Source: Diplonema japonicum | Taxonomy: Eukaryota > Protista > Euglenozoa: Diplonemea | Assembly (NCBI GenBank): GCA_964019335.1 | Contig: OZ025742.1 | Span: 1 to 64,000 of the forward strand | Direction: 5' to 3' | Length of the DNA: 64,000 nt | Part shown: positions 622 to 39,371 of the stretch, one piece after another | How the letters are laid out: each line of letters opens with the position of its first letter | Position numbering within the stretch: position 1 is the first letter of the stretch | Notes under the pieces: generated by a model | The model's input: only the letters and a program-made list of their open reading frames with translations | Told to the model about the DNA's origin: nothing | Database searches by the model: none | Made by a program: the position numbers and the translations under genes

Positions 622-903
622 AAAAGGTGATAAGTTTTTTCCATTTTACCATAATAGATAAGAAAGAAAAAAAAAAGAAAAAAGAAAGTGTTTCCCTATT
701 AAGCCCCCAACCCCCCAATTCGTCTACAAAAAAAAAAAATAATAAAAAAAAAAAAAAAAAAAAAAAACCATAAAAAAAAAAACAAAAACAAAAAAAAAAA
801 CATAAAGAAAATAAAAGAACAAGAGAAAAAAAAAAAAACAACAAAAAAAAAATATAAAAATAAAAAAAAAATAATACACGACGACGACGACGACGACGAC
901 AAC

Positions 904-1140
904 GGGTCACAGCAATGTCATCTCTCTGCGCGAAGGAAGCTCGTACGACTTGGCTACAACTCGCGGCTAAATCCTGGCCGGCCCCGCACGTATAGGGGTG
1001 TCCAAACGGGACAAGGCGTTAGTGGTGGCGACGTAAGGTCTGTTAGGGCCGGCCCCCCCCAAGTCGTACAACCCTATCTTCGAAGACCTGAAGGTAGGGG
1101 TGACCACAAAGGCAGAGTGACATACATGCTGAAACGACCC
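904..1140 (+). promoter_or_regulatory. Nested multi-helix RNA structure upstream of E1 ORF2 (candidate IRES or recoding element)
   Basis: Complementary pairs 943-953/1059-1069 (11 bp perfect), 976-984/1046-1054, 1072-1081/1090-1099, 904-929/1112-1140. Confidence 0.6.
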
Positions 1141-5109: not shown

Positions 5110-5316
5110 AAAAACTTATAAATTATAATATGTTATACTCTCCAAACATTGAGGTCTGAAGTTGTTAAACGACTTCAGACAGCAATTGTTTCTAACTCAA
5201 TCTCTCGACTCTGGCTTCACTCCTATCCTTTCTTTTCACCTCCCTCCCCAGTGTCTTCCCTTATTTTCCATTACCAGGCCCCTGTCCCCCGCCCCCAGTG
5301 TTATTCAAATTTTTCA

Positions 5317-7963: not shown

Positions 7964-8104
7964 CCTCCCGAGTAGGGTGGGGATCAGTGCAGAAAAGTCG
8001 GTGAAGAAACAGAGAGGTAGGAGTCTCCTGGGGAGGATGCGAGGGAGACTAGGAGAGGGAGCATGGTCGTAGATCTGCTGCTCCCCCTGTTCTGCGGGGC
8101 CCCT
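7907..8104 (-). other. In-frame post-UGA linker + 2A-like motif (LLGLVETNPG/P) of E2
   Basis: 47 sense codons after the ORF1 TGA run in frame into MSVRDLLGLLGLVETNPGP. Confidence 0.8.
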
Positions 8105-10966
8105 TCAATTGGATGGACCCATGGAGGCAGAGCGCCCCTTGACCCCATTGGTGAAGAGATCTTTGGTCTCCGCGAACGACCTGGCCCGCCCCCTCGTACC
8201 CAGGTTCGTCACCGCAGCCTCAGAGGTCGTAGCGAGAGGAGGAGCCCCCTTCTTCCCCTTCCCCTTCCCTTTCCAGACACTGTCGTGTGTCGTCGTCGCC
8301 CCCGGTGTAGGGTCCCGCGGCACTGCCGTTCCCGTCGTCAGCGTGGCCGCCTGCGGCAGGAGGAGGCGGAGCGTCGTCCGCAGATCGGAGATCATCTCCT
8401 GCTGAGAGTCGATCGTCCTCTGCAGCCCGACGATCGACTCCTTCAGCGTGGCGACGAGCTCAGTGAGAGCGGCGACCTCAGGCGACCCGGAAGGGACCCC
8501 CTCCTTGTTTCCCCCAGACACGTTGCGGGGCGGTGTAGGGGACGTCACAGTGTCGAGCTGGGGGGGAGCCACCGAGCTCGGTATGGACGCCCACGGGCTG
8601 GTGGGAGGAAGCCCAGTTGCTTTCACCGCAGGGTCAGTCCCCGAGGGTGTCGACGCCGATACAGGTGCCGGGTCAGGTACAGGTGTAGGCGCAGGTGCAG
8701 GTACATGAGAAGATGTGGGTGCCGGGGTCGAGGACGTTGCAAGCGCAGGTGCAGATGCAGGTGTCGTCCTGTTGATGAGAGGGGGCGGCTTGACGGTCGG
8801 GTGGTCGTCCGCATCACGGAGGCAGACAAGGCGCCCCCCAAGGAGCCACGTCCTGGACTTCGGGGGCGGGCCGTCGACGACGATGAAGAACACGAGTTGC
8901 CTCGTGCCCTGGAACATCGTCTGCGTGCGTCGCAGGACGGAGGATGGTTTCCAGCCGATGTGGTCCATCATTTCATCGAAGGCCGCCCTGGTGATGGACG
9001 GCGGGGCCCCGGTGAGCAAAAACTTGCGCTTCGTACGCAGTTTTGCGAGGGTTTCCCGGAGCCGCTGTTCCGTCTCCGGTAGGCACCGCACAGTCCATCC
9101 CTTACGGTGCGCCACCCCGAGAGACAACCCACCCAGCGTCCCCGCAATCCGAAAGGCATCCGCCCTCCCTTCCGCCACGATGGGTACATAAGCGTACCCC
9201 CCGCGTCTCTCCGTCGTCCGGATCATGCACCCGTCCCCGGACCGGCGCAGGACGGCGTGGACGTGTGCTGCTTGCAGGCGCAGTCCCACCTCGTGGGTCC
9301 AGTGCCTCGCCCGCGGTTCCTCCTCACCGAACTTCCTTGGGCGGAAGACCGCACGATCCTCCACCACCGCGCCCTGAGCCTTGGCGAGCTCCAGGACCCT
9401 GGCCTTCGCCTCCTTCAGGCTGTCTGCACTGACACAGACGTAGACGACCTCCGATCCGCTGTTGAAGGTGGAAGGCGGGGTGTAGGTGGGGGGGTCCAGC
9501 CCGAACGTGGAGACGTGGACCCTCCTGTTCACTGCGCGCGACCCAGAGACCATGACAATCTCGCTGGGGGTGGTGACACCGGGGACCTCTGTCATAAGGA
9601 CAAAGGTGATGGATGCCGTAGGTAACGCGGAGCACACGACCCCCATTCCGGAGGGATCGTCGAGCGCAATGACAGCGCGGGATGTTTCCGTCGGGGGGGA
9701 CACGTTGGTGTAGATCGGGGCGTCCCATGTGTCTGGCACCAGGTCCCATCGCGGGGTTGTGGAAGGGGCAGGGGCAGGGTCGTCCTCCATCTCCTCAGGG
9801 CCAGAGCTGGTGTCAGAGTCTGAGCTGAGGAGGAGCGTGCCTTGGTCTGTTGACGCGTTGGCGGAAGCGTTCGCGACTGCTTCGTCCTCGACCTTCTGGG
9901 CATCTGCCTTCTTGGCGGCCGCCAACCTCAAAGCTTCCTCCTTTTTGGCAGCGGCTGCGGCGGCTTCCTTTTCGGCGGCGGCGGTGGCTGCGACCTTCTT
10001 CTTCTCCTCGGCGGCGGCGGCTGCGGCTGCGGTCTCCTTCTCGGCGGCGGCGGCGGCGGCTGCAGCTTTCTTCCTGGCGGCGTCGGCTGCGGCCTTCCTC
10101 TCGGCGGCGGCGGCGGCGGCTGCTGCTTTCTTCTCGGCGGCGGCCTTCTCCTCGGCGGCGGCGGCGGCTGCTGCTTTCTTCTCGGCGGCGGCGGCGGCTG
10201 CGGCTTTCTTCTTCTCGGCTGCAGCGGCTGCGGCTGTAGCCTTCTTCTCCTCGGCTGCTTTCATCTCGGCCGCAGCACGCGCAGCCTCCTTCTCCTCTGC
10301 CGCAAGTCGTGCAGTAGACCGCTCGCGCAGAGCCTTCTCCTCAGCCTCGACTGCTCTGCGAGCAGCCTCCACACCAGCCACGCGTGCAGCTTCCGTCTCG
10401 GCTGCCATTTTGACAACCGCAGCATCAGCCACCTCCTGCGCAGCCTTCATCTTAGCTGCTATTTCTGCAGCTACCACGTCGGCCGACTCGCGTGCAGCTT
10501 CCAAATCAGCAGCGATTCCCGCGAGTTCGACGTCGGCCGCAGTGCGTGCGGCTTCGAGGGGGTGTGTGGCGTCAGCTTTGTGTGCGGCTTCGGCGGCAGC
10601 GTCAGCGCGCGCGGCTCTGGCGGCCTTCCTCCTAGCTTTCTTGCTGGAGGTCGGGGTGGCGACGCTGGCGTCAGGCGAAACCGGCCTTTTGACGGAGCCG
10701 GTCGGGGTGGAGGCGACAGGTGTCGCTGGGCCGGCTGTAGCGGCGGCGGCGTCGGGCGTGAGGAGGTCAATCACGGTGACCACCCCCGTCATCTTCTCCC
10801 GGTGCTCCGGCGTCAGGAGCTGCCCCAGCTCCCCGGCTGCTCCCGCGCTGCGGAGCATCCTCTCCACCCGCCGCTCCTCCCTGGCCTTGGACTGCGCCAG
10901 CTGCGTGCTGGCCCCGTTCCCTTCCGGCTTTGCCTTCTCCTTGTGCTTGTCTTTCTTCTTGCCCAT
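8105..10966 (-). CDS. E2 ORF1 (Ala/Lys/Glu-rich coiled coil, central RRM-like region, coiled coil, basic tail)
   Basis: 953-aa ORF with ATG after an A-run; AAAAAEKK repeats; central domain homologous to E3 and E4 ORF1. Confidence 0.85.
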   Translation of the reverse strand: MGKKKDKHKEKAKPEGNGASTQLAQSKAREERRVERMLRSAGAAGELGQLLTPEHREKMTGVVTVIDLLTPDAAAATAGPATPVASTPTGSVKRPVSPDASVATPTSSKKARRKAARAARADAAAEAAHKADATHPLEAARTAADVELAGIAADLEAARESADVVAAEIAAKMKAAQEVADAAVVKMAAETEAARVAGVEAARRAVEAEEKALRERSTARLAAEEKEAARAAAEMKAAEEKKATAAAAAAEKKKAAAAAAAEKKAAAAAAAEEKAAAEKKAAAAAAAAERKAAADAARKKAAAAAAAAEKETAAAAAAAEEKKKVAATAAAEKEAAAAAAKKEEALRLAAAKKADAQKVEDEAVANASANASTDQGTLLLSSDSDTSSGPEEMEDDPAPAPSTTPRWDLVPDTWDAPIYTNVSPPTETSRAVIALDDPSGMGVVCSALPTASITFVLMTEVPGVTTPSEIVMVSGSRAVNRRVHVSTFGLDPPTYTPPSTFNSGSEVVYVCVSADSLKEAKARVLELAKAQGAVVEDRAVFRPRKFGEEEPRARHWTHEVGLRLQAAHVHAVLRRSGDGCMIRTTERRGGYAYVPIVAEGRADAFRIAGTLGGLSLGVAHRKGWTVRCLPETEQRLRETLAKLRTKRKFLLTGAPPSITRAAFDEMMDHIGWKPSSVLRRTQTMFQGTRQLVFFIVVDGPPPKSRTWLLGGRLVCLRDADDHPTVKPPPLINRTTPASAPALATSSTPAPTSSHVPAPAPTPVPDPAPVSASTPSGTDPAVKATGLPPTSPWASIPSSVAPPQLDTVTSPTPPRNVSGGNKEGVPSGSPEVAALTELVATLKESIVGLQRTIDSQQEMISDLRTTLRLLLPQAATLTTGTAVPRDPTPGATTTHDSVWKGKGKGKKGAPPLATTSEAAVTNLGTRGRARSFAETKDLFTNGVKGRSASMGPSN

Positions 10967-11731
10967 TTTTCTTTTCTTTTCTTTTACAATTTTTTTTTTT
11001 TTTTTTTTTCAAAATACCAATAGGTGCCACCATGGGGGAGCAACACCTGGGAAGGGGAAAGGTGAAGGGAAGCATGGAAATATTACAGGGAGGGCGAAGA
11101 CCAGTTCTTCTGCAATCAGATGGAGCTGTGGACTCCGCCAACCCGTGCACCTGTTTGGAACAGCCGAAGAGGGCTGAATTACTTTAATTCCAAGCCGCGT
11201 AGACCTACGTGACTCGGACGGGGACCTTGACCCCAGTTCGTCGTTTTTCTCAACTGGGACCTCTGGTGACCGGAACTGGCCCCGGTCGCCCCCTCGAGAG
11301 GGATTTGCTCCATTGAGCGAAACATGAAAGGGTGAGAGTAAAATCTCTCAAAATCAAAAGGGGAAGCGAGTGTGCGTGTGCGCATGGGGATGATAGGGGA
11401 AGCATTTGCTCTCCCCGCTGCACTCCGGCAGGCGGGGGGAGGGGATGGCCGTACCACACTCGTTCGTGCGAAGATGAGAGGACTCATCTTGGCAACTTCA
11501 GAGTAGGCCGGGTCATCCGTTTTTGACTACAATGTCAGGGCACACGATAACAAGAGGATGTTAATTTTAAAAAATTTTTAAAATTTAAAAAGTTTAAAGG
11601 GGGACGGGCATACTGGTAAGAGAAGGCCAGACGCCGGATGATGATAAAGAAAAGGATGAGAGGGAGTGGAAGAGAGGGGAAGGGAACGTAAGCACTAAAA
11701 GAATTGAAATGTTGATCTCACCCTACTCACT

Positions 11732-14700
11732 TCAGCGCAACACGGGGGCCGCAGGGCCGGCGTCAAGGGAGACAGCCGGCGGGATGAACGAAGGGGCAGC
11801 GGTACCTGCCGTTGCCGCAGACGGCGACGTGAAGACCCCGGATCTGGCCCAGTCAAGCAAGCCAGAGTCGGCGATGAGGGTGAATACCTGCGTCACGCGT
11901 TTTGACAGGCACTCCACCAGCGAGGGGCGTCCATTGGGAGCGTCGAGCGAACCCCGTCCAACCACAGCGCACCCCCCAACAACGTGCTCCCTGGACATCC
12001 GAGCTCCACACGCTGGACAGCTGAGCTCAGCCTTCTTCCTGTTCGGTCCAGCCGCCTGCAGGAAGCCGAAGAAGAGAGCGGAGTGCCCTACCCTCAGCCG
12101 CGAGATGACCGTCTCCGCTAGCCTGGGGAGGGACTGGGGGAAGCACGCCGCTCGGAGCCCCGTGGCCCTCGCGTACCTCGGGGCCACCTCCCCGACAATG
12201 ACCGCAGACCTCTGCTGAATCTGGCGACGGACCAGGGCCCTGACCGACCTGTAGTCGAGAGAGGGGCGAGTCAGCTCGCGCTTCGTGCCCTCCCCGGCCA
12301 GCCTGTCTGCCGCCTCGTTGCCAGGAACCCCGCAGTGGGACGGCACAAACTGGAGAATTACTGGTGCACCTTGTGCACGTGCCGCGGCCACCAGCAGTTC
12401 CCAGGTCTCGTGGTCGAGCCTCTCCCTCTGCCGCGAAGGACCTGCCCTCAGCTGATCAAGGAGAGAGAGCGAGTCGGTACAGATCGACAGCCGGCTGTCT
12501 GCCAACGTGGGGTGCTCGCTCCGGAGCGCGGCCACCATGTCCAGAGCCACCTTGACAGCCAGACCCTCCGCCCGAAAGGAAGAGCAGAAATTGCTGACGC
12601 CGAAGCTCTCGGACACGGGTTCGTGGGGGCGGGGGAGCTGCAAGTAGACCCCGGCGCCGCCCCTCCACCTCTGGCGGTCCCGTACGACAGAACCATCCGT
12701 ATAGGCATGGATACCCGGTGGAAGGGCAGCCAGAGCCTCCACGGCCGCCTTCCGCTTATCCACGTCCGGCGACGAACGCGTGACCCTGCCGGGAAGGGCA
12801 GTTCTGAACTCCACCAGGAACGCGTGCCACGGTGCTACTTTGGGCGAGGCAGTCAGTAGCTCGAAGGTGTCGTACTTCCTGAAGCCTTCCTGCGTCGTCC
12901 ACCCCTGCAGTCCGCAGCGTCGTAGCGCAAGGATACCCGCACGCAGCCACCCATTGCCCATACCGGTCATCCGCTTCTGCTCAAGGACCTCGCGGTGAAC
13001 CGGGGAGGTCCTCCAGCAGAACGACTTCGCCGTCAACACCGCCGCAGCTCCCTCAGCCATCTGTCGGAGGGGTAGCAGACCTGCCTCAGCAACAACCTTC
13101 GCCGTGCCCGAGCCGTGCCAACAACCCGAGATCAGCACCGCCGCTCTCTGGTGGAGCCCAACAAGCTCCTCCACCCTGCTGTCCCTGAGCCTGGCAAAGT
13201 AAACACCCATGCAGTACCGGAGTAGCGGGAGAACGTACGTGAGGTACAGAGATCGGAGCGTGGCCTTCTTGCACCCCCAGGTCGTGCCCGACAGGAGCCT
13301 TAGTACCCTCAGCCTCTTGTCAGCGCGCCTCAGGACATCCCCCGCATGCTCGTCAAACGTGAGCCCAGAGTCTACAGTGACCCCAAGATACTTCGCCGAC
13401 CCACACAGAGGCAAGGGGCGAGCCGCCATGTAACCAATGTCGGACCTCCGGATGGCGGCGGGAATGTCGAAGGACCGTTTGCCACCCGCCTCCACGACCC
13501 GAAAGCCAGACAGCTCACGGACGCCAGACAAGGTCCCACAGGCCCCAACCCCAAGATTAAGGACAGGGTCCTGGAAGGCCCCCGGGCAAAGCGGGACACG
13601 CGACGAAGAGAAGTAGACATTAAGCCGCTTCTGATAGGGAACGCACACTGCCTGCGACTTGCTGGAGCTCAGCAGCATGCCCCGTCTCCCACACCAGCCC
13701 TCAACCGCGTCCATCACAGCCTGGGCCCCTCGCTCAAGACCAGCCAGGTCGCCCTGCCCGGCTGAGACCACCACCGCAACATCGTCGGCATAAAGAACCG
13801 ACAGGTCCGCCATCCCAACCAGCAACCTGGCTAGCTCGTCGACGTAGATGGTGTAAAGGACGGGTCCCAGCACAGACCCTTGGGGCACCCCTCTCCTCAC
13901 CTTCGTCGTCGACCCTCGCGAACGACCCACCGTGACCGCCGCCGTACGACCGCAGAGGAAGGAGCGCGTCCATTCGACGAAGGGCTCAGGGATCCCTTTC
14001 CTCCGCATCATGCCCAAGAGAGCTTCGTGCTGAACCAGGTCAAACGCAGATGAGAAGTCAAACAGCAGGGCAGCCGACAGACGCCGACTGTCTTTGTTCC
14101 TCGACAGGCACCCGGTCAGGGACGCCACCTGCTCCTCCGTGGAGCGGCCCCTCCTGAAGCCAGCCTGGCTGTCGTGGAGACTCTCAACGCCCGACGCGCT
14201 AGAGTCTAGGAGAAAGGTAAGCCTCTCCTCTATCATCCTCTCAAGCAGCTTACAAAGACAGCTAGTGAGACATATGGGACGGTACGATGCAAGCAACGTG
14301 GCGTCCTTCCCTGCCTTCGCCACTGGAACAATCACCCCCTTCTTCCAGGCACCCGGCACGATCCCCGCCTGCCATGAGCGATTGAGGAGCAGAAGTAGAA
14401 CCCCGAGCGAGGGTTGGTCGAGGTGGAGAAGCATCTCCGCGAAGATGCCATCATCACCCGCTGCACTGCGTGTCTTCATCCTTCCCAGACCGCGGGTGAG
14501 ATCATACACCGTAAAGGCGTGGCACCCAAGCACGTTCGTCGAAGGAGCTACGTCCACCGCGTCCCCATCACCACCCTGGCCGTAGAGCTTGCCGAAGTGA
14601 GCCCCCAGGCGGTCGGCTTTCGCCTTGTCCGTCACGAACCTCCCCTCGAGAATGGGAAGGTGCGGTCTGCGGTGTCTGCCGTCCAGCTTCTTCACCGCCC

Positions 14701-15898
14701 TAAACGCAGACCCGAGGTCCTTGCTCCGACTGAGGTCAGCCGCCATCTCACCCCAGGCCGCGCGCTTCGACTCGGTCATGAGTTGGTTTACCTCCTTGAC
14801 CTTCGCCTTGTAGACCGCCGCCACGCTGTCGTCCTCAGTCTCAGCCGACTTGAGGAAGCGATCCCGCAGGGCGTTCCGTTCTTCGAAGGCGTCTTCGAGT
14901 TCGGCCGTCCACCAGGGGGTCGGGCCTCGTCGCACTCCGCAAAGCGGAATGTGGTCGTCAGCTGCATGCAGAAGAGCCTCTGTAACCTCCTTCGTGAAGG
15001 AGTCAATGTGGGCCTTCGTGTCGATCTTGGTCAGAAGGGCAGCGGCGGCCGCGGTGAAGTCGTCCCACCTGGCCTTTTTGAAGTTCCAGGTAGGGCAGGG
15101 TCGCTCCGAGCAGTAGGCGTCCTCAAGCGGCAGGCGGAAGGAAACCGGGCTGTGATCAGAGCCCCACGTCCCCAACGTCCTCGGCTCCAGTTCCGCACAA
15201 CGTCCCACCACCAGGTCCAGAACGCATGGCGGTGAGTCCCGCGTCGGCTCGTCACGGTTGTTGTAGACCGTGTAGCCGTGGGTGTCAAGCCAGTCCCTGA
15301 CCACGTTCCCCCTTTCGTTGGGCGTTGTCACCTTGGCATCCCAAGAGCTGTGGTGTGCGTTGAAGTCGCCAGCAACGATCGTGTTCTTCCCCACAGGTAG
15401 GCTGCCCGGCCGTAGGTACTCGGGGTCCCTTGTCCCTCTGCTTATACTCACAGGCGTGAGGTACACGTTGGAGAGGGTGACCGGGACGCGCTTCACACAG
15501 GAGATCCTCACGTCTAATCGCTCAGTGACACTGTCACCTTCAGGGAGTACGAAAGGAGCTTCCTCCGAGGCAAGGCAGTCACGGACATACGTGATGACAC
15601 CACCGCCTCTCGTCGCAGAGCCGTCCGTCACCGGTGTTGTGCGGTCCCTCCTGTAGGACGTGTATCCAGGCAGGTATGGTGTCTCATGCCCCTCCCTAAG
15701 GTGTGTCTCCTGGATCATAATGATATCCAGCGTCAGTAGGACAGCGTGGTAGGACACGGTTGACCACTTGGCGGCAAGACCGTTGCAGTTCCAGGACAGG
15801 ACCCTGAGTCCCTTCGGCTTCGGGGGTGGGAGCTTCTTAGGTGGACCGGGGTTCGTCTCAACCAGCCCAAGCAGCCCCAGCAGGTCCCTGGCCGACAT
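11732..15898 (-). CDS. E3 ORF2: 2A-like + APE + RT + RNase H + CCHC (frame open upstream to 16039)
   Basis: LVETNPGP; SWNCNG, QETHL, GDFNAHH, SDH; YRPICL, GVPQG, YADD; YTDGS, TDSLS, SHCG..GNEAAD; CPAC..HVVGGC. Confidence 0.95.
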   Translation of the reverse strand: MSARDLLGLLGLVETNPGPPKKLPPPKPKGLRVLSWNCNGLAAKWSTVSYHAVLLTLDIIMIQETHLREGHETPYLPGYTSYRRDRTTPVTDGSATRGGGVITYVRDCLASEEAPFVLPEGDSVTERLDVRISCVKRVPVTLSNVYLTPVSISRGTRDPEYLRPGSLPVGKNTIVAGDFNAHHSSWDAKVTTPNERGNVVRDWLDTHGYTVYNNRDEPTRDSPPCVLDLVVGRCAELEPRTLGTWGSDHSPVSFRLPLEDAYCSERPCPTWNFKKARWDDFTAAAAALLTKIDTKAHIDSFTKEVTEALLHAADDHIPLCGVRRGPTPWWTAELEDAFEERNALRDRFLKSAETEDDSVAAVYKAKVKEVNQLMTESKRAAWGEMAADLSRSKDLGSAFRAVKKLDGRHRRPHLPILEGRFVTDKAKADRLGAHFGKLYGQGGDGDAVDVAPSTNVLGCHAFTVYDLTRGLGRMKTRSAAGDDGIFAEMLLHLDQPSLGVLLLLLNRSWQAGIVPGAWKKGVIVPVAKAGKDATLLASYRPICLTSCLCKLLERMIEERLTFLLDSSASGVESLHDSQAGFRRGRSTEEQVASLTGCLSRNKDSRRLSAALLFDFSSAFDLVQHEALLGMMRRKGIPEPFVEWTRSFLCGRTAAVTVGRSRGSTTKVRRGVPQGSVLGPVLYTIYVDELARLLVGMADLSVLYADDVAVVVSAGQGDLAGLERGAQAVMDAVEGWCGRRGMLLSSSKSQAVCVPYQKRLNVYFSSSRVPLCPGAFQDPVLNLGVGACGTLSGVRELSGFRVVEAGGKRSFDIPAAIRRSDIGYMAARPLPLCGSAKYLGVTVDSGLTFDEHAGDVLRRADKRLRVLRLLSGTTWGCKKATLRSLYLTYVLPLLRYCMGVYFARLRDSRVEELVGLHQRAAVLISGCWHGSGTAKVVAEAGLLPLRQMAEGAAAVLTAKSFCWRTSPVHREVLEQKRMTGMGNGWLRAGILALRRCGLQGWTTQEGFRKYDTFELLTASPKVAPWHAFLVEFRTALPGRVTRSSPDVDKRKAAVEALAALPPGIHAYTDGSVVRDRQRWRGGAGVYLQLPRPHEPVSESFGVSNFCSSFRAEGLAVKVALDMVAALRSEHPTLADSRLSICTDSLSLLDQLRAGPSRQRERLDHETWELLVAAARAQGAPVILQFVPSHCGVPGNEAADRLAGEGTKRELTRPSLDYRSVRALVRRQIQQRSAVIVGEVAPRYARATGLRAACFPQSLPRLAETVISRLRVGHSALFFGFLQAAGPNRKKAELSCPACGARMSREHVVGGCAVVGRGSLDAPNGRPSLVECLSKRVTQVFTLIADSGLLDWARSGVFTSPSAATAGTAAPSFIPPAVSLDAGPAAPVLR

Positions 15899-16039
15899 CC
15901 GTTCAAGTAAGGAAGGGATCAAGGAAGGGAGGACGTCGTACAAGTGATGTGGAAGGTGTCTCCTCGGCTGTATGCGCGGGAGACCAGGAGAGGGGGCGTG
16001 GTCGTCGATCTGACGCCCCCCCTGCTCAGCGGGACCCCT

Positions 16040-17170
16040 TCAATTGGCAGGGGCGGGGGCCGGGCCCACAGAGGCTGCCCGTCCACGGCCGGCCCCGTTG
16101 GGGGAAGCAGAGTCGCCAGCCAGCGACTGGGCGCGTCCCCTTCCGCCCCCTTGCTCCGTCGATGTCGGGTAGGGGCCTGGCGTGCTTACGCCCTGCGCCT
16201 GGTGCCCCTTCGTCCCTGCCTTGGACCCAGCCTTGCCGCCCTTGCCCTTCCCAGCAACTGCCGTCCGCCCAGCTCCGTCTGCAGATGACGCCGGCGCGCC
16301 AAGTGACGCTGCCATCTTCTCCTGGAGGTCGCGGACCGTCGCCTGCAGACCGTCGATGGTCGCCTGCATCGACTGGATCAGCGCGAGGAGCGCCGGGACC
16401 TCAGGTTCCGGTGCGGGATTCTTCTTCTGGGAGTCACGGGGAGGTGTCGTGGTCGGGGAAGCCGCAGAGGAGACCGGAGTCACAGTGCCAAGTGGCGGAG
16501 GGGCAACAGAGCTCGGTGGAGATGACCACGGATTGGTGCTCGGCAGCCCTGTGGACTGCACCGTGGGGCCAGGGGCCGGCGTCGGCGTCTGGGCCGTGGT
16601 TGCCGCAACCGGCGTCCGAGCCGCGGGTGGAGCCTTCTTGTTGGTGCGGGGCGGGAGCGTGACGCTCGGGTGGTCCTCCGCGTCGTGCAGTCGAACGAGA
16701 CGAGAGCCGAAGAGCCATGTCCTGGCCTTGGGGGGCGGGGCGTCGGCGACGATGAAGAACACGAGTTGCCTCGTGCCCTGGAACGCCGTGTCAGAGCGTC
16801 GGATGATGGACGACGGCTTCCAACCGATGTGGTCCATCATCCCGTCGAAGGCTGCCCTGGTAACAGACAGCGGGGCTCCGGTGAGCAGGTACCGTCGCTT
16901 TGTCCTCTGCTTGGCGAGGGCCTCCCTCAGACGCTGCTCCGTCTCCGGCAGGCACCTCACGGTCCAACCCTTGCGATGGGCCACCCCCAGGGACAACCCG
17001 CCCAGTGCCTTCGCCAGCTGGAAGGCCTCCGCCCTCCCCTCCGCTACGATGGGCACGTAGGTGTACCCCCCGCGCCGCTCGGTCGTCCTGACCATGCAGC
17101 CGTCGCCCGAGGCCCGGAGTACCGCATGGACGGATGCCGCTGGGAGCCGCAGGCCCACCTCGTGGCTCCA
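16040..17170 (-). CDS. E3 ORF1, 3' part (5'-truncated)
   Basis: Aligns to the C-terminal part of E2 ORF1 from WTHEVGLRL onward; ends AAT-TGA as in E2. Confidence 0.85.
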   Translation of the reverse strand, partial: WSHEVGLRLPAASVHAVLRASGDGCMVRTTERRGGYTYVPIVAEGRAEAFQLAKALGGLSLGVAHRKGWTVRCLPETEQRLREALAKQRTKRRYLLTGAPLSVTRAAFDGMMDHIGWKPSSIIRRSDTAFQGTRQLVFFIVADAPPPKARTWLFGSRLVRLHDAEDHPSVTLPPRTNKKAPPAARTPVAATTAQTPTPAPGPTVQSTGLPSTNPWSSPPSSVAPPPLGTVTPVSSAASPTTTPPRDSQKKNPAPEPEVPALLALIQSMQATIDGLQATVRDLQEKMAASLGAPASSADGAGRTAVAGKGKGGKAGSKAGTKGHQAQGVSTPGPYPTSTEQGGGRGRAQSLAGDSASPNGAGRGRAASVGPAPAPAN

Positions 17171-20100
17171 ACCAGCAGCGGTCAGCACGCAGGAAATTAT
17201 GGAGAACTTGGTCGCAGCAGGCGGCGATACAACGGGCAATAAAGCTAAGAAACCCACAGCTGCCACCACGGCCCTCCATCTAGAACTGTCTTCCCTCCTG
17301 AAGGCTGTCCAACGCGCGCTGCTGGACAAGGATCTGGAGGGCAGGTCCAAGACCCACGGTCCCGACGGTATCCGACTAAAGCGGTACTGGATCGTCGACT
17401 CGGCCGAGAACGTAGCTGCGGATATCAAGCAGCAGTACACAACTTACAAAAGCCTGTCCCCTGCCACGTACGACTTCCGGGACATGTACACCAACCTCGA
17501 CCAAGGGCGTCTGAAAGAGGGGGTTCGTAAAGCAGTCCAAGAAGCGTTCGACTTTACCGGCAAGAACCTCACCCGTGGCAAGGACGGGAGCTCCTTCACA
17601 GATGCCGACGAGGACGATGTCTACACCCCGGAACGGATCCATAAGCTCCTGGACCTCGTCGTTGACACCTATGTTGTGCAGGGTGGCCGCGCCGTTCGTC
17701 AAGTAAAGGGTATCCCCATGGGTGGGAACGCCTCCCCCGACCTGGCGAACCTGTTCTGCTACGCCGTGGAGGCCGCATACATCGACAAGCTCCTCGCCGA
17801 AGAGGACTGGGAGACCTTGAAACGCTACTGCAACGCGTGTCGCTACATCGACGACTTCCTGTTGTGGAGCACTGCGCCACCCCCGGAGGAGCTTTATGGC
17901 ATGGCTTATGTAAAGACCTCTTCAGACCCATGCGACGTCCCCTTTATCGGGATTCGCATCCGGATAGAGCGCCACGAACAAGCTAAGCACAACTATATTA
18001 GACTTAGCATTAACGATAAGGCGCAGAACTGGCGCTTCCGGCCTACGCGGTTCACCCACGGGCACACCGCGGCGCCCACCACCCAGGGACCAGGCATCTT
18101 CAAGGGCATGGTCATCCGTGCCTGCGCCCTGACCAACAACATCGCGGACCTCAAACGGGAGATCGCTTCAGTGATCTACCTGCTCCTAGATCGCGGTCAC
18201 GACAAGGGCGGCCTGCGGAAAGCGTACAACGCCTTCCTTATCGAACGCGTGGATCGACGCTTCGCCATGGAGAAAAGCAACCTGCTGGCCTTCTTCACGC
18301 AAGTCCTCCACCGATACGACGCCAAAGCCCCGGTAGATTCTTGGTTGCCGGAAAAAACGTACATAGGCCCCAAGAAACCCCGTGCGCTTCCCACGGACGA
18401 CTCCTCGGACGACTCCTCAGCTGACTCCTCAGTCGTCTCCTCAGTCGCCTTCTCGGGGGGCCCCTCAGACGAGCCCTCGGACAGTTCCTCGGACAGCTCT
18501 TCAGGTCTTGTCGAACCGTCACAACCCCGAGCAGCCTCCGTGGTCTCACCATCTGGTGTCACGGACCAGGTTTTTTCGCCCCCCATCAACCTGCACACCA
18601 ACAGCGGGGAAGGTCGCCTGGGCCTGGAATGCGGCTGGGCCGTCATAAACTGGTTGGCGGACTATGCTGGTGTGGACCGCATCCCCTTCTCTACAATGCA
18701 GGAGATCCAGGAGATGTACCACGGCTTCTCACGACTCATCTCCCCTTCCAGCACTGATGAAGCGCCCGATCCTCTTGGCAACTTTTCCCGCTCGACCTTG
18801 TCACGTGCTTGCCTCATGGTCGTTGGTGCAAACTTGGAGGTCTTCCGTGCGGGCATGAAAGAAAGCCCCTGCTTGATCGTTGGTCCCTTGAAACGAAGTC
18901 TCAGCGGCCACTGGTTCATCGCTCTCAGGAAGAAGGGAAGGTACATGGTCAAAGACACCGACGTACGGCTAAGGCTCCAGAGCTTCAAACACATCTGCGC
19001 GACATACTCCGAACACAACATCCTCTGCATCCCAGACGATGTGTGGGCCAGGACAACCCCAGGCAGGAAACACAACACACGTGTTCTAGACCCTGAGGCT
19101 GAGTTTCGCCAGTTTGAGCCGGTCATCACCCCGGCGGCACCCCAGGTAAGCGACTCGAGCGCGCGAAAGACTGAGACCGCTCTCAACACCCCGGAAGATC
19201 GCACCCTCCTAACTTATGTCACCCTAGCTGCAGCTATAGCTACATATGCCGCACGCACCCGACGGCTCGACACAGGAGTCGCCGCATCAGGTGTGGACGC
19301 ACACACCGCTCACTTCGGGCGGCCCGTCGCCACCGCCATCGTAGCCCTAGCTGCCGCCGTGGCCGCGCGAGCCGTGCACACCGGATGCTCTGTCACCACC
19401 ACGTCTACGGCAAGCCAGACTAACGTGGTCGGAACTGTCCCGCTCTTCCTGAAGGTCTCGAGTCTGCACAAGTCTACACCACAGACAGCAGTCGCAACCT
19501 GTCAGACGGACCGTGTCACAGCACCTGTACTGTTCTCGATATCATCGACGCTCCAGACGGATCCTCCCAGCAGTAGACTGCCCCCGATGGACGCCGGACT
19601 GGGGTCGCCCTCGGCCGCGGCGGTCAGACTTACGAAGTCTGTCGAAATTCCGACGCCCCGCGCGACCCTGTCGAGGCGGCCGGTTACTGAGCCTCGGTTG
19701 ACACCATGCCTTCCACCGCCAACGGACGTGTCATCCACCCAGCTCGCGGCCTGCACTCAGTCCACCCGTCGGGACACCGGACACGGGAGTGACACACCGA
19801 TGCCGTCGTCTACCATGGGACACGCGACACTCCAACCAGTGGTCGGCTCCCAGATTGTGACAACGTCGGCTGTGGAGTCATCGCTCGCCCGAGCCGTGAC
19901 AACGCCCGTTCTGGCAGACGCCCCCCTCGGCGCCCGCCAGGTACAGCTCACTCCTTGCATCCAGTCCGTCCATGAGAACATCGGACTCGGGATGGATACG
20001 CCGATGGCTCCCGCCATGGGACACGCGACGCTTCAACCGGTGGTCAACGCCCAGAGAGACACGACGCTGACCCTGGAGCCGCCCGTGGCCCGAGCCGAGG

Positions 20101-21224
20101 CAGACGCTCCCCTAGACCCTCACCAGGCGGATGGTGGTTTAGAAATGATCGACCTCACGCAGGACTCCCCGGACAGACCCTCGCGCAAGAAGAAGCACGA
20201 CGGCACTGCTTACGAACACGAAAGCCGTCGTGGTAAGAGTTCCTCCACAGGCGATGGGGATCTTCTCATCCTGCGCGAGCAGTCACAGGGTTTTGATCAG
20301 GAAGCCCTCAACCGAAGGGCCCTCCAGAGACGGATGGATCGATACCTCAGTCTCTTGGTCTACTTCCGGCGACACCCGGAGCTCTTGGACGAACACCAGC
20401 GTCAGCTCCTGTCGGTCGGTCCCCTCCCGATGCACCTGGACACCTCTCCACATCAACTGCTGCTCGAGGCCCGTGACACGGATAGAACTGCCGACCAACA
20501 GGCAACCGTCGCCAACCAGGAACAGCTTCTTCTGATTGCGCACAAGGCGTTGCCTACCACCGAACGTCTTCGGTTGTCTCACGAATGGCACTCGGGGCTG
20601 AACACCGCGGTACAGCAACAGTGGTGGTCGGAGTTCTTCGCCCAAGGCGGCTGGAAACACCCACTCTTCGGTTCCGAGGCCCCAAGAGGTGACGAGACTA
20701 GGACTCCAGGGAGGACCCCTCTCCTGCTCACCTACAACGGGCAGAGGAACAAACGCCCGGAACCCGAAGACGGCCCCGCCCTTCCCGCGGCCAAACGGGA
20801 TCTCGCCGCGACGAGGCCGAACACCAGAGTCACTGGACTTGTCGCCCTTAAGAGGCTCACCAGGGAAGCAGACGTCGACGGCCCTGAGGACCTGGATGAG
20901 CTTCGACACCTGGGCTTCCTTTCCCAGGGCGAGGCCGTCTTTGACCTCAGCTGCATGTCCAGGGCTTGCACACACTTCCTGGGTGAGACCCCCATGGTCA
21001 CGGTCCCCCTCGACACACGCGTCGCGATCCCGTGTCTGCTGGTCTGTTATGACTCGACGTGGCTCTACGCTTCCCGCCAGGAACAGGGCTTTCGGTTGCA
21101 GACCCAAGGGTTCAAGGACAAGTCGTATCCGACTGTGGCAGCCCTACTCGCTGACTTCGTGGGGGCAGGGACCCTCTACTACAGCGAGTCACAGTGGTCG
21201 ACTGTGCTGAACTCCTACAACTAG
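17171..21224 (+). CDS. Penelope-like element polyprotein, 5'-truncated: PLE-type RT + thumb, Josephin-like protease, low-complexity linker, degenerate second Josephin-like domain
   Basis: YWIVDS, TYDFRDMYTNL, GIPMGGNASPDLANLF, RYIDD, H..APxxQGPGIFKG..IR..L..RG; CGWAVINWL..GNFS..HWFIALRK..D. Confidence 0.85.
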
Positions 21225-21720
21225 GAACTACTGGAGACGACCCTACGCAATGTAGGAGTGCCGGCCCGGCGTGCTACGAGGGCGATAGGCTATGCAGGGT
21301 CTCACAGACCTCGCACCCTATGATTTTAGTTTCCACCTTTTCCTTTTCCACTTCTTGACTTTTAACTTCCCTTCTGCTTTCCCAACATGGTTTCCGTCCC
21401 GGGTATGACGTTAAACTGCGTCCGCCGACACATTTGGGTCAACATTCTCTGATGACCAAGCCGTCTTTTTCCGTTTCTTCTCCCCTTCTCTTTGTTATGT
21501 TATTTTCATTATTCTTTCTGGCGATAGACTGATACGGGCCATGGAAGCAACCTCTGCTTAATTCCTGGTACGTGGGAGGCTCCTCTTGAGGATGTCAGTC
21601 ACCTTTTCCCTTTTTTACTCGACTCTCTGTTTTCGTATGCAGTATTTATTCTTTCCCACCCCTTTTTATCTATTTCTTCGCTTCTTCATCCTAACTTAAA
21701 ACCATTTCAGCTACCTGTCC
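17171..21720 (+). mobile_element. Penelope-like retroelement (RT motifs resemble Naiad/Chlamys-type PLEs); 3' boundary approximate
   Basis: PLE RT signature, no C-terminal GIY-YIG, U-rich 3' region after the stop. Confidence 0.7.
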
Positions 21721-22199
21721 GCACGTCTGGCCGTCTTGTTTACTGCCTTCGCAGTCTTGGCAGTGCGCCTGGCCTCGGCCTCAGCAAGTCTTGGGCTGGC
21801 ACAAATAGGTGAGGTCTGGGGGACAAACGCTAAGTGAACGTTTGTTTCTGAAAACAAGTTCACAAAAGCCTGCGTAGTGTGGACATTGTAGTCATCAAGG
21901 ATGAGTAGGATGGGCTCGGTGGGTGCTCAGCCCGATGACTCGATGAGGTTGTAGCAAAGGGGAGAAACAAATCTTTTACTCAGAGTCGAAGCGTTTCCTG
22001 GGTGGCCCCAGTGAGATTTCGAAGCTGTTAAACTCCAGCCTTTTGAGGGGTGTAGAACACGAGGGACGGACCCGGGGTATTTCCTGCCGCGAGCTGGTTC
22101 TGTTTTTCCCGTGTAAATTAACCCGGGTTTGCCACTTCGTGGGCAGTTTGCCATCAGACAGGGAAACGCAAAACTGTCCGGTGACGGCGCGCTTGTCCC

Positions 22200-22560: not shown

Positions 22561-23460
22561 GACATTGGCTCCATGACGCAAACCCGCAAAGCATAAGAAC
22601 AATCCTAAAGCAAGCACAAGAAGTGGTTCGGTTCAACAAGCTTGTGGTAGAAGCGAACAATCAGGATCTGGAAAAGTCCGTAATTCAATTGTCTGATATT
22701 CGTTTGATTTTCTCTTGCTAGTTTCATCTGTTTTCGGGTCCAGCCCTTTAAGAAAGGGGGTCTCAGGAAAAAAAATGTCCGGAAAATATCCGGACCGCCA
22801 GAGCTTCCGGACATTTTATCTTCCGGTGATTTTTGTTTTACAGTAAGTCTTTTATTTTTGCACACGCGGTACTTGAGCTCATAATTTCTTCCACGAACGG
22901 TCGCTTCGGTTCAAAAGAACAGCGGAATCTGAACCTCCCAGGGTTCAAAATTGATTCAAATCCATTTTAACCACGCAGCAACAACAACAGCAGGCACAGC
23001 AACAGATGAAACAGCAGCAGGAAAAGATCCAAGAGAACTAGACAGCAAACGCAACCTTTTTGTCAGATTTTTTGTTGTTTGCTGTATCACAAGCTAGGGG
23101 GTATCTTGTTTTTTAGGATTTGAAATATTCCATTTTTCTTCTCCTGCCGCTTTTTAAGCGCTTCTTTCAAAATTTCTATAAAATAAATATTGTCGTTCCC
23201 TTGTTTCTGTTGTCGTTCCTCCCTCCTCCCTTTCCCACGTGCGGCACTAGGTCACTGCACACGTGTCACTAATTAGTTACTTCAGTCTTTCTTCTCTGTC
23301 TTCCCTTTCTTTTAACCCGCCACAGTGCCTTGCATGATTGTGCCCTGGCTCAAAGACGTTCCTAACTTTGCAATTCTTTCTCCTAGATTCTTCGTATAGC
23401 CCCACTTTCTAGTTTTGAACAACACAACAGCACGCTTTGCTTTAAAAAAAAAAAAAAAAA

Positions 23461-26415
23461 ATGTTACTGATATGGGTGGTGATGAGTTTGGCGGGCCCCT
23501 ATTCACCAACTCCTTCAGGCTGTTCCGGGAATGCTGAGTGCCGAATCGGGTGGGCCTGTATGTGGTTACGGTTTGATGATAATCCAGTTTGTACTGATAC
23601 GAAGTTGTGCGAGAACTACTTATGTGCTGCAGACGAGACTTGTGGTATCATGAGAAACAACTACAGCGTCAATGTTGTTGGCTGTGTGAAGCGGCGTGAT
23701 CCATGCCTTCGCATGTCTTGCGGGGTAGGCGAAAAGTGCTTAGTTCCGTTCAATGACACATCTTCACCCCCTTCCTGCGCTACTGTCGATTTCAATCCTT
23801 GTCGCACTTGGGACTGCAGTTCTGGAAACAACGTGTGCAAGCTCACAAAGGACAACTTCCCGTTCTGCGCTCCCAGCGACCCTTGTTCCACGACGTACTG
23901 TGGTGCGAACCGGTACTGCGACCTCGATGCCTCCTTTGCCTCCCAATGCCTTGAGGAGCCCTGTGTGAATACGACGTGCCCTGCTGGCGAGCACTGCATC
24001 AACATGTGGAACGACGACACGGAGAGGGTCGGGCTTTGCTTTGGCGACACAGAAGCTCCCCCCACCGACGCGCCCGCCACACCAGCACCGCCGGTGACGC
24101 CATGCTACGGGATCACCTGCGAGGTGGGCACGCGATGCGAGGTTGACGTGGCGAGCGGCAGTCCTTCGTGCATCGACATGCCTCTGTGTCCCAACATCAC
24201 GTGTGGTGTGAACGAGACCTGCGGGCTCGTCGTGGTGGGTAAGGAGCAACTGTGCGTTCCGAAGAAAGATCCTTGTGTGGGGAAGTGTGAAGCCTACGGC
24301 TACCTGGCACCAGAGGTCTGTGTTGGCGGAGACTTTAGGGTTCGATTTGCGAATTATTACTCCTGCCTCGACGCTAGCACCGTGGGATGGGATTGTACCA
24401 TCGGAGGGGCATCGCAGCAGGTGTGCTCGGCTTTTGGGATGCGCTGCAGGTTGGATGGGTGGTGGAATGCCTATTGCACCGACCCGGACCCTTGCACCTC
24501 TGTGCGTTGTGGTTCGGATGAGTATTGCGACTTCGATGAGTTCTACAACGCTGTGTGCTTGAAGCAGCCGTGCCTTAACACGACCTGCCCTGCTGGGACG
24601 CACTGTGTGAATGGCTGGGATGAGCTTGTCTTGGTGTGGCAGGCAACCTGTGTGAACGGGACCACGGAGGCCCCTTCCACCCCTGAGCCCCGTTCAACGG
24701 ATGCCCCCACAATGTCGCCGCGCCTCGCACCGTGTGTGAACCACACCTGCGCCTTGGGTTCCCGCTGCGAGATCGACGCTGGCGGCAGTCCTGTTTGCTT
24801 CGACACGGAGCCGTGCAGCAACATGACATGCCGCGTGAACGAAACCTGCGGGATCGACAGGTCTGGGAACGGGTTATGCGTCACGAAGAATGACGCTTGC
24901 TATGACGGGATCGCAGGTAAGGGCCAATGCGCACAGGGGGAGTTCTGCATCAGCCAGTCCACTTCTTCTGGGGAGCCGCACTACTGCGACTCAGACCTCT
25001 TCAACGACCCTTGCAAGGATGTCGTGTGCCCCAGCGATATGCGGTGCAGGGCGGAAGGCTTGGGCAACCCGCTGTGCGCCGTTCCCGACCCTTGTTGGAA
25101 CCTGAGGTCGAATTCCTCTACCTGTAGCTACTCGACCAATATCTGTTACCTTGATAGCTCTTATGACGCTGTGTGCGACTGGAACCCTTGCACCTCGTCG
25201 TCAGGATCCATCTGTCCTTGGGGCAGCCTCTGCAAAGTGAACCCCACTGGTGACTACTACTGTGTGGACTTGGAACCCTGCGGCAAGCTTTCATGTGCGT
25301 GGAACGAGACATGTGCCTTCGACGGAAGCAACCAAGCCAAATGCATCTCGAAAAGAGACCCTTGCGAATATTGCCCCCTGGACTATTGTGAGTTCAACTA
25401 TGAAACAGGCCAAGGGGACATGATGTGTGACCACGCAGCACCTTGGGGTATTGACCTTTGCACGTTTGAGGGTGGGTGCCCGTTGGATGCACCTTGCAGG
25501 AATGGAGAAGCCGGATTTCCTCTGTGCGCTGCCCGAGACCCTTGTTGGAATGTGACGTGCGATGCGGGAAAGTACTGCACCCTTGATTATGCCTCTGGCA
25601 CCGTGTGCTTGGACGGGCCGTGCCTCCACACAACCTGTGCTCCTAATGAGTTTTGCATGGACACTCGGGTAAGAGGGCTAGATTTGTTTGCGAGGTGTGT
25701 GGTGAATCCGCACTGGACAGCTGTCCCCACGCAGTCGCCTCAAGTCAACTCCACAGAAGCACCTGGGGTCAATGCCACAGAAGGACCTGGGGTCAACACC
25801 ACAGAAGCACCTGGGGTCAATGCCACAGAAGCACCTGGGGTCAATGCCACAGAAGCACCTGGAACACAGCCAGCAACGAACACCACAGATGCGGGTCCCA
25901 GTGTAACAGAGGCACCTGAAACTCAGTCACCTGAGGTCAATGCCACGGAGGCACCTACCACTGAAGCATCTACCACAAAGGCACCCGGTACCACCGATGC
26001 ACCCGGAGGGCGGGGAACACAAGAGCCGACAGAGGCACCTGAAAACAGCAGCAGCAACAACTTCCTGTTGGCGATACTGCTGGTGCTTGGCGGGGTGGTT
26101 CTGCTGTGTGGTGCAGTGGGTGGGTTCCTCAGGTGGAAGAAGGTGAAGTCAGAGACACTAACTGCGGACGAACTATTGGTATGGTACACACACCAGGAGA
26201 TGCTTGGCACAGGTTTACGGTATGGACAAAGACATCGAGAGCGAGATGCAGCAAGATCTAGTGGTATGCAACTTTCAAGGGAGGACAACTCAAACCCGAT
26301 GATGCAGCGGGCAACAGGAAAGACAAAACCCGGAATACCAGTTTTTCTGGGGAAGAAAGTTGTTAGATATGGGGGGGTAGCAGCTTTGGGGGCTCTGTCT
26401 TGGGGAGAGGAATAA
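23461..26415 (+). CDS. Cys-rich (follistatin-N/EGF-like repeat) type I membrane protein with TEAP mucin stalk; likely intron 26179-26212, possibly 26264-26307 (stop at 26302 if only the first is spliced)
   Basis: Signal peptide, repeated DPC..vtC....C modules, TM LLAILLVLGGVVLLCGAVGGFL, GT-AG intron at the same position as in the paralog. Confidence 0.85.
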   Translation: MLLIWVVMSLAGPYSPTPSGCSGNAECRIGWACMWLRFDDNPVCTDTKLCENYLCAADETCGIMRNNYSVNVVGCVKRRDPCLRMSCGVGEKCLVPFNDTSSPPSCATVDFNPCRTWDCSSGNNVCKLTKDNFPFCAPSDPCSTTYCGANRYCDLDASFASQCLEEPCVNTTCPAGEHCINMWNDDTERVGLCFGDTEAPPTDAPATPAPPVTPCYGITCEVGTRCEVDVASGSPSCIDMPLCPNITCGVNETCGLVVVGKEQLCVPKKDPCVGKCEAYGYLAPEVCVGGDFRVRFANYYSCLDASTVGWDCTIGGASQQVCSAFGMRCRLDGWWNAYCTDPDPCTSVRCGSDEYCDFDEFYNAVCLKQPCLNTTCPAGTHCVNGWDELVLVWQATCVNGTTEAPSTPEPRSTDAPTMSPRLAPCVNHTCALGSRCEIDAGGSPVCFDTEPCSNMTCRVNETCGIDRSGNGLCVTKNDACYDGIAGKGQCAQGEFCISQSTSSGEPHYCDSDLFNDPCKDVVCPSDMRCRAEGLGNPLCAVPDPCWNLRSNSSTCSYSTNICYLDSSYDAVCDWNPCTSSSGSICPWGSLCKVNPTGDYYCVDLEPCGKLSCAWNETCAFDGSNQAKCISKRDPCEYCPLDYCEFNYETGQGDMMCDHAAPWGIDLCTFEGGCPLDAPCRNGEAGFPLCAARDPCWNVTCDAGKYCTLDYASGTVCLDGPCLHTTCAPNEFCMDTRVRGLDLFARCVVNPHWTAVPTQSPQVNSTEAPGVNATEGPGVNTTEAPGVNATEAPGVNATEAPGTQPATNTTDAGPSVTEAPETQSPEVNATEAPTTEASTTKAPGTTDAPGGRGTQEPTEAPENSSSNNFLLAILLVLGGVVLLCGAVGGFLRWKKVKSETLTADELLVWYTHQEMLGTGLRYGQRHRERDAARSSGMQLSREDNSNPMMQRATGKTKPGIPVFLGKKVVRYGGVAALGALSWGEE
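25744..25863 (+). repeat. 24-bp coding tandem repeat x5 (VNxTEAPG)
   Basis: gtcaa(t/c)..cacagaag(c/g)acctggg units. Confidence 0.9.
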
Positions 26416-27813
26416 AAAAATAATTACGTGCTACGCATCTCATCGTTAAGAACACGAACTTGTTTTGGTCCCTTCTTCCCAAGGAAGAGGCGGGCATCTT
26501 TGCGATACACGCTCAGCCTCTTCCTCCTTTTTTTCTTTACCTTCCACGTCAAGAGAGACAAAAAGAAATAATAGAACGCTTCATATCTCGGCGGGAATGG
26601 GCTCAGCTGCCCCCTTTACCGTCGGTCGCAAACAAGGTTTTTGTTTGGGTCGATAGGCAAAACGGACTTGGCGGGCCTATCTCAGCGCAACATGCACCTA
26701 TGCAGAAGGGCTGCTGCGCGCCAGTCCAGCCCGAAGAACAGACCTGGTAAACTGTGTGGGACACTGTCCTTTTCCACAGCTGGCTGACTAACTTTGCAGC
26801 AAGAAAGGCTACAAAAGCCGCAGGCCCCACCGGTAAGCCCGGAAACGAGAAGGAAAGAGAGGGCACGCTGTCCACGCCTTCAGCATGGCAGTCAAACTAG
26901 CGACAAGAGGCCCCTTTTCTCGTCCACTCAAACAGCGCTCGAGTGATGTTCTTACCGCAGATGAATCCATGGCTGAAAGGCAAACTCCGACAGCCGACAC
27001 CCCCTGGCACCAACCATGGCACAAATACCGCAAAAACTAGTTGATTTTCTGGCCTCTTTTTTCTGACGCCCCATTTTCACAAATCTTCAGAAAACATGAG
27101 GGAACAGTTTTTCCCGGCTCTAGCCAAAATCCCCTTAGAGGGAATCCAGAAAATAAATAAAAATGAAAAAGAAAGAAACCCCCCCCCCCCCCTTCACAGA
27201 TCAACAAGGATGCTACCTACAGCGCCGCATAGTTCGAAGCCCTCAATTGTAGGAACCCATTTTCGCATTCTCTTCCTCATTGAACGCTATGAGGCCCTTC
27301 CCCTTTTTTTGTTGAGTTGCAGCATAGGAGCCCCTCCCCTTTTTTTTGTAAAGGGGTTGTCGTGCTCAACTACTAAGGACCGCAGCGAACACATTCTTCC
27401 TCCCTTTTTTTCCCCCCTCTCGTCTCACTTCCCCCCCCCTCTTTTTTTTTAAAGCGTGCCTCTAGCACGTGTTAAATTATTTGTTTCTTTACTAAAGAAA
27501 TAAAAATGAGAATGAACCATTCTCAAAAAAAAGAAAAGAAAGGGCTGTCTGTATCAGTCTCTGTCGCACTTCTTCTCTCTCGGCAAGCCTCCTTTTTTTT
27601 TTAAATGTCTCTTTTTTTTTTCTGTACTTTATTGGTGTCCGACCGTGCCAATAAAGTCAATAGGTAATACGGTTTGTAAAGAAAGAAAATTGAAAGAAGT
27701 TGAGAAAGCAGATCGCAGAAAAGAGAGCTAAAAGAGGGTAAAAGAAGACATTGAAGTTGACAAGAAGTAAAAAAAAAAAAAAAAAAAAGGAAGCAGAGCA
27801 GAGGACGAGCAGT

Positions 27814-38895: not shown

Positions 38896-38928
38896 GTCTT
38901 ACATGCGCCAAAAGGGACTTGATATGTA

Positions 38929-39275: not shown

Positions 39276-39371
39276 TCCATCTTTTCTTTTTGCAGTTTTC
39301 TTTCTTCTTGCTCCTTTTTTTTACTGACATGCAACCTTATCCATCCCTCACACTCAGGTACCTCCACAACA

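Follow-up and report, generated by a model that had tools for sequence, protein, structure and literature searches.

A Chlamys-type Penelope-like element of Diplonema japonicum carries a predicted Josephin-like domain in a position that relatives fill with several predicted ubiquitin- and SUMO-type proteases

We analyzed a window of 64,000 nucleotides from Diplonema japonicum (assembly GCA_964019335.1, contig OZ025742.1, positions 1 to 64,000). One stop-to-stop open reading frame of 1387 codons on the plus strand (17061-21224) holds both a reverse transcriptase (RT) and a Josephin-like domain in a single frame, in the order RT, thumb, Ser/Asp tandem linker and Josephin-like domain (Table 1). 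The RT displays the motifs GIPMG (at 17709) and YIDD (at 17844), followed downstream by the thumb, and matches Pfam RVT_1 with an E value of 2e-4. These features agree with the first-pass annotation of the locus as a Penelope-like element (PLE). By eye, the approximately 80 residues separating YDF from GIPMG occupy the insertion-in-fingers position between RT motifs A and B', and this insertion is co-linear with that of P0002 and P0004 (relatives are designated by P and L numbers). The GC content at the three codon positions of the domain (0.52/0.46/0.72) resembles that of the RT (0.60/0.40/0.74). The PLE stretch was present in 16 listed runs from 8 studies, 10 of these runs containing at least half of its words, and no RNA run was found among the listed runs containing it. 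Contigs of three runs carried three extra in-frame bases at 17664, which points to the loss of one RT codon specific to the window copy.

Table 1. Features of the element and of the adjoining LINE (positions in the window).
Feature	Position	Strand	Basis
Chlamys-type PLE, 5'-truncated, one open frame	17171..21224	+	ORF; full-length P0165 alignment; LINE similarity end
RT motifs 2-7 (long A-to-B' insertion) and thumb	17241..18368	+	41% identity to Diplonema papillatum P0002/P0165
Ser/Asp-rich linker	18394..18572	+	12-bp tandem array 18394-18494; translation
Predicted Josephin-like papain-fold cysteine protease domain (aa ~510-655)	18588..19030	+	HHalign, shuffles, AF2 and VIA-align, profile match to ataxin-3
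Arg519, where Josephins have the oxyanion Gln	18615..18617	+	Gln at -5 in ataxin-3, P0045 and P0078
Predicted catalytic Cys524	18630..18632	+	A2 alignment; aligned with ataxin-3 Cys14
Predicted catalytic His617 and aromatic Trp618 (gatekeeper position)	18909..18914	+	Aligned with ataxin-3 His119-Trp120
Predicted third triad residue Asp632 (His+15)	18954..18956	+	Ataxin-3 Asn134 likewise His+15
Ser/Thr/Pro/Ala-rich spacer	19056..20201	+	Flat codon-position GC; internal duplication 19740-19905 / 19944-20107
C-terminal region, no known family	20202..21221	+	Without Pfam or Atlas match
APE-RT-RNase H LINE, ORF1 5'-truncated, outside the PLE	11735..17170	-	Pfam; 77% DNA identity to the copy at ~5316-11008

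The closest named relatives of the RT are themselves diplonemid, namely gene models of Diplonema papillatum (41%) and a transcriptome protein of Flectonema neradi (P0006). The closest full-length relatives are the Diplonema papillatum elements P0002/P0165 and P0018, which are multi-copy. In the full-length proteins P0165, P0003 and P0018, an N-terminal GIY-YIG without a Zn-finger linker (neither CX2-5CxxC nor CCHH fingers were seen) is followed by CxC, DK and RT, which is the layout described for Chlamys elements (Craig et al. 2021, PMC8557442). The N-terminal GIY-YIG that the first-pass annotation anticipated in a complete copy was thus found in the relatives, giving a GIY-YIG-RT-protease layout. 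The window copy lacks GIY-YIG, CxC, DK and RT motif 1, and P0165 can be aligned with it only from 17241 onward. In a tree built without published Chlamys sequences, the query RT belonged to a clade of 35 rows supported at 100/100 and separate from the rows called Naiad-type from their endonuclease (EN) motifs. On this layout, the window element is a 5'-truncated copy of a PLE of Chlamys type, with a predicted N-terminal GIY-YIG in its complete form. Lacking the endonuclease and RT motif 1, it is presumably incapable of autonomous transposition.

The truncation coincides with the end of a neighbouring LINE. The first ~37 codons of the open frame are the reverse strand of this LINE, which can be matched to its second copy only up to 17170. 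A 5'-truncated LINE on the minus strand and the 5'-truncated PLE on the plus strand thus meet head-to-head at 17168-17175, sharing one breakpoint. Two contigs of run X12 cease to match at 17168 and 17170 and continue into other sequence, as would be expected where two truncated elements are joined head-to-head. Either a deletion or a template switch may have produced it. At the other side, the 3' end of the PLE is not fixed, and a search of the window for a pLTR repeat found none; an Rfam scan for ribozymes and a search for a hammerhead core likewise gave no match in the PLE. Many loose-ended contigs in four runs matched 21359-21800, past the PLE stop, a stretch without Rfam match that is probably either a separate dispersed repeat or the 3' end of the PLE.

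We then considered the domain that follows the linker. The motifs reported for it in the first-pass annotation lie where they were placed and in one frame: ECGWAVINWL begins at 18627, with its Cys codon at 18630, GNFSRSTL begins at 18777, and the His and Asp codons start at 18909 and 18954. The Pfam Josephin search that had been suggested as a check gave no match for the domain alone, which is therefore below the gathering threshold of PF02099. PDB sequences and two domain-only word-index searches (proteins of 762-2428 aa and of 30-761 aa) gave no match either, and Atlas placed a Josephin cluster fourth (score 0.88), which we take as no more than a lead. The link to Josephin runs through relatives. 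When RT and domain together were searched with phmmer against 1.84 billion representatives, RT relatives were recovered, and in five of them the match extends to the domain at the same position. When the query subfamily was compared with the Josephin-bearing relatives by HHalign, a probability of 93.4% (E 2.5e-7) was obtained, against less than 1% with USP, OTU or Ulp1. An HMM built from eight relatives, without the query, gave the domain 13.2 bits, a score reached by none of 2000 shuffled sequences (best 5.0; reversed sequence -1.8), and the USP and Ulp1 HMMs scored it below zero. The profile of the 13-row alignment of relatives (A2) matched ataxin-3 at E 5e-4, and placed Cys14, His119 and Asn134 on the triad columns. 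The assignment as Josephin-like, with the triad residues first called, is confirmed on these comparisons and on the predicted fold described below.

The triad follows the Josephin order and spacing in alignments both to relatives and to ataxin-3. The first-pass annotation would have been undermined by a triad that varied between copies. In A2 the Cys is present in 13 of 13 rows; in the eight rows that cover the columns concerned, His is found in all eight, and the third site is Asp in seven and Glu in one. This conservation of His and Asp leans on relatives of 14-22% identity, because the two closest ones, P0006 and P0048, end before the His. An aromatic gatekeeper, Trp618, follows the His. 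The Gln located five residues before the Cys forms the oxyanion site of Josephins. This residue, noted initially as not obvious, is indeed missing and replaced by Arg519 (Gln9 in ataxin-3). It is kept in P0045 and P0078, replaced by other residues in most PLE relatives and likewise absent from P0006 and P0048; most Josephin-bearing PLEs lack the Gln but keep the triad. Read contigs from the same organism revealed a second family that covers the domain, with 44 differences over 313 bases. The stretch containing His and Asp (18832-18996) is the most diverged part between the two families, too diverged for an 80% alignment (160 versus 163 letters), and its divergence is in frame. The other differences displayed no excess at third positions (12/11/9 among the 32 listed, which lie mostly outside the catalytic core).

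A structure was predicted with AF2 from the A2 alignment (pLDDT 69.5, pTM 0.66). Since this alignment is made of Josephin-like relatives, the model is not independent of them. VIA-align against 48,161 chains ranked four Josephins first: ATXN3L (Z 9.0, rmsd 3.0, 117 residues aligned, a top score near the background of Z 7-8 given in the tool's own warning), JOSD2 (8.5), BpJOS (7.9) and PaJOS (7.4). C39 peptidases came next (Z 7.2-7.0), and bacterial Josephins held ranks 3, 4 and 7. Foldseek returned nothing at E<=0.001 for the same model, with C39 peptidases first and ataxin-3 near the top, and a viral fold library was also without match at this threshold. The check by AlphaFold and Foldseek proposed earlier was thus borne out as to the Josephin fold, which the four best VIA-align chains share, and not as to Foldseek significance. 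The model accordingly has a predicted papain-type fold of Josephin kind. Fold matches of a model computed from the single sequence (pLDDT 44) were meaningless and were set aside. Compared with ataxin-3, ATXN3L and JOSD2 (PDB 1yzb, 3o65 and 6pgv), the predicted domain shares the fold, the order Cys...His-Trp...Asp/Asn and the third residue at His+15. It differs from them by its low identity (14-15%), the missing oxyanion Gln, its fusion to an RT, and a Cys-His distance of 93 residues against 105 in Josephin deubiquitinases.

A Josephin domain in a PLE, which the first-pass annotation did not know of, is not new, because Craig et al. 2021 list one in three Chlamys families of Chara braunii, Chlamys-1, -4 and -6_cBra (PMC8557442, section 9 and File S1), where the homology is called weak. 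In the openly accessible literature that paper was the only report of Josephin in PLEs that we found, and we found none describing USP, OTU or Ulp1 in these elements; the main text of Craig et al. contains none of these three names, with 'peptidase' and 'ubiquitin' absent and 'protease' occurring once. As published, the Chara elements are alike in being PLEs with an N-terminal EN and a Josephin-like motif in a C-terminal extension; going by this description, they differ by an additional Cys/His-rich domain, not seen in the window ORF, and their host is a streptophyte alga rather than a diplonemid. The window element is therefore a Josephin PLE of the published kind, for which no report from diplonemid hosts was found. 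It extends the Chara observation to such a host and adds support from a predicted structure. Other retroelement polyproteins with ubiquitin- or SUMO-type proteases belong to different RT classes: the non-LTR element Dualen carries a Josephin in its polyprotein (as cited in PMC8557442), and NeSL/Utopia elements an N-terminal Ulp1 (PMC4640811).

The pattern across relatives matters more than the single element. Among 60 RT relatives with C-terminal tails, Pfam detected Josephin in 9 (6 above the gathering cut-off), UCH/USP in 8 (6 above), OTU in 3 (2) and Ulp1 in 1 (1), P0137 having been omitted because of its size. Of 33 ORFs from 80 metagenome loci, 11 gave a Pfam match to Ulp1 and 5 to UCH, which in one case lay upstream of the RT. 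For a wider count, RT matches shorter than 200 aa were dropped and 30 near-duplicates were removed from 184 rows. The 154 remaining rows comprised 63 with a tail, defined as a labelled protease or more than 150 aa, and 91 without. A predicted ubiquitin- or SUMO-type protease follows the RT thumb in 39 of the 63 tailed relatives (Josephin 14, USP 11, Ulp1 10, OTU 4), and the catalytic motifs are largely intact. Five of these Josephin labels (P0025/P0160, P0051, L001, L008, L027) were assigned from motifs and HHalign (95%) rather than Pfam, P0160 after its cluster mate. The other 24 tailed relatives have no protease, and most Naiad-type rows stop at the thumb. Since many relatives do without it, the protease is not essential. 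It is this predicted slot with four families that would be new to specialists. A malectin-like tail unrelated to proteases was seen in P0123, and a 2125-aa ORF at L019:189-6563 has a USP ahead of the RT and a Ulp1 after it; this ORF may represent either a PLE equipped with two proteases or the product of fusion to a host gene.

The RT phylogeny that had been called for placed the query among PLE rows with an N-terminal EN, beside USP carriers. In this 45-row tree, in which 6 of the 91 tail-less rows were kept (20 in another row set), AU tests rejected a single clade for Josephin (p 3e-5), USP (p 4e-35) and Ulp1 (p 5e-78). The tree requires nine changes of slot label, or eight without P0020, where three changes would be the minimum. 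The Ulp1 label of P0020, given by eye, was left unconfirmed by HHalign (3%). The Josephin type occurs in at least three separate supported parts of the tree, and USP also in three Naiad-type rows. The query pairs with P0006 (95/95), within a 98/96 clade that contains eight USP carriers including Diplonema papillatum elements; P0002/P0165 and P0018 have a USP in the slot where the window element has a Josephin. This clade is sister to four Josephin carriers (100/95), which also provide the best full-length matches of the query's domain. Josephin may therefore be ancestral in the query's group and later have been replaced by USP, the change counts themselves being blind to gain versus loss. We observed that three multi-copy PLEs of Diplonema papillatum (P0002, P0165 and P0167) are annotated as the host gene 'Ubiquitin carboxyl-terminal hydrolase 26'; the main text of the genome paper of this organism does not mention Penelope.

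What could such a domain do for the element? The initial annotation had left open polyprotein processing or deubiquitinase counter-defence. We favour the second, because four unrelated ubiquitin/SUMO protease families fill one slot. The domain would then be a deubiquitinase that protects the element's own endonuclease-RT protein from tagging and degradation by the host, a reading to which we give somewhat better than even chances. Provided that the triad is active and works on ubiquitin or on a ubiquitin-like tag, the full-length EN-RT-protease protein would free itself or its RNP of ubiquitin, thereby escaping host degradation. Self-protection is suggested by the functional uniformity of the slot together with the precedent of Helitrons. 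Their VTD domains were shown experimentally to be active deubiquitinases, OTU domains occur besides or instead of VTD, and these enzymes were proposed to prevent the degradation of transposition proteins (Erven et al. 2022, PMC9741609). Helitrons are thus alike in encoding deubiquitinases of interchangeable class, and differ in being DNA transposons with two such classes against four predicted for the PLE slot. In a broader version, the scatter of protease types over the RT tree would reflect repeated replacement under selection: Chlamys and Naiad PLEs would maintain an anti-ubiquitin slot, refilled at least eight times by Josephin, USP, OTU and Ulp1 in an arms race with host restriction in protists. 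For this generalization we would put the chances slightly short of even. A single slot occupied by four unrelated predicted proteases of the ubiquitin/SUMO type is what one would expect to see if PLE proteins were tagged by their hosts to be destroyed or silenced.

Other roles can be envisaged. The domain might be a ubiquitin-type protease that acts in trans on host targets, such as repair factors or chromatin, bearing ubiquitin or SUMO, at the site where the element inserts, and it may do so irreversibly, as a clippase. The occupation of the same slot by SUMO-type Ulp1 in a third of the metagenome ORFs (11 of 33) fits this role, as does the presence of bacterial Josephins, some of them clippases, at ranks 3, 4 and 7 of the fold search, and Trp618 is compatible with clipping since many clippases retain an aromatic residue after the His (bioRxiv 10.1101/2024.07.24.604956). 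However, the top two chains of the structural comparison belong to conventional eukaryotic Josephins, action in cis accounts more simply for the fusion to the RT, and nothing points to a host target; we consider action in trans unlikely. Josephins are described as slow enzymes, bacterial ones being able to escape standard probes (PMC10643670). A Josephin with weak activity or none, retained for ubiquitin binding or in decay, is rather less probable. The loss of the oxyanion Gln, a divergence too great for a Pfam match and the concentration of differences between the two families in the His/Asp stretch would all be expected of such a domain, but Cys, His-Trp and Asp are all retained at the ataxin-3 spacing, most PLE Josephins lack the Gln and still hold the triad, and the two families differ without loss of the reading frame.

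Self-processing, in which the protease would cut EN-RT from the long tail of a polyprotein, appears improbable, even though the domain sits between two flexible linkers and C39 peptidases are near in fold. Viral papain-like proteases, FMDV Lb-pro for example, combine self-processing with deubiquitination. Self-processing leaves unexplained why all four families in the slot are of the ubiquitin/SUMO type; moreover, many relatives have no protease at all, and no Gly-Gly or conserved site was seen by eye between thumb and domain in the A1 and A2 alignments. PLEs and other transposable elements do pick up host sequence, and the malectin-like tail of P0123 could be cited in the same sense, but a neutral passenger from a host gene is very improbable, as 39 of 63 tails share a single functional class and have mostly preserved catalytic motifs, and as Josephin recurs in at least three separate supported parts of the tree. 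Tagging of PLE proteins by the host is open to testing in Diplonema papillatum, where the elements that bear a USP are now annotated as host genes, and the slot supplies many small, divergent deubiquitinase candidates.

The last ~130 residues of the ORF (20820-21221) resemble the first domain, with Thr at both the Cys and the His positions. A dead second Josephin copy was not established in this stretch, since 82 of 2000 shuffled sequences reached the pairwise score. With two HMMs that included the first domain, 2 and 11 of 2000 shuffles did so, against 203 of 2000 with an independent HMM, and HHalign gave 11%; these residues may nevertheless represent such a copy.

The first half of the window contains four APE-RT LINE copies (703-5106, 5316-11008, 11735-17170 and 30097-33324), and Pfam RNase H was found in the LINE regions 703-5106 and 11735-16039. 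Ahead of the LINE ORF at 30097-33324, a plus-strand ORF (27742-30093) weakly matched Otubain (Peptidase_C65, E 0.0099), without a Cys at the expected place. An OTU HMM brought no confirmation for this ORF (18 of 2000 shuffles reached its score), which is possibly a LINE ORF1 with a dead OTU. Membrane-type proteins with Cys-rich repeats are encoded at 23446-26415 and 38099-44162. Within the latter, 39430-43903 consists of four 1128-bp units that are 99.8-99.9% identical, an array that is possibly an assembly expansion.
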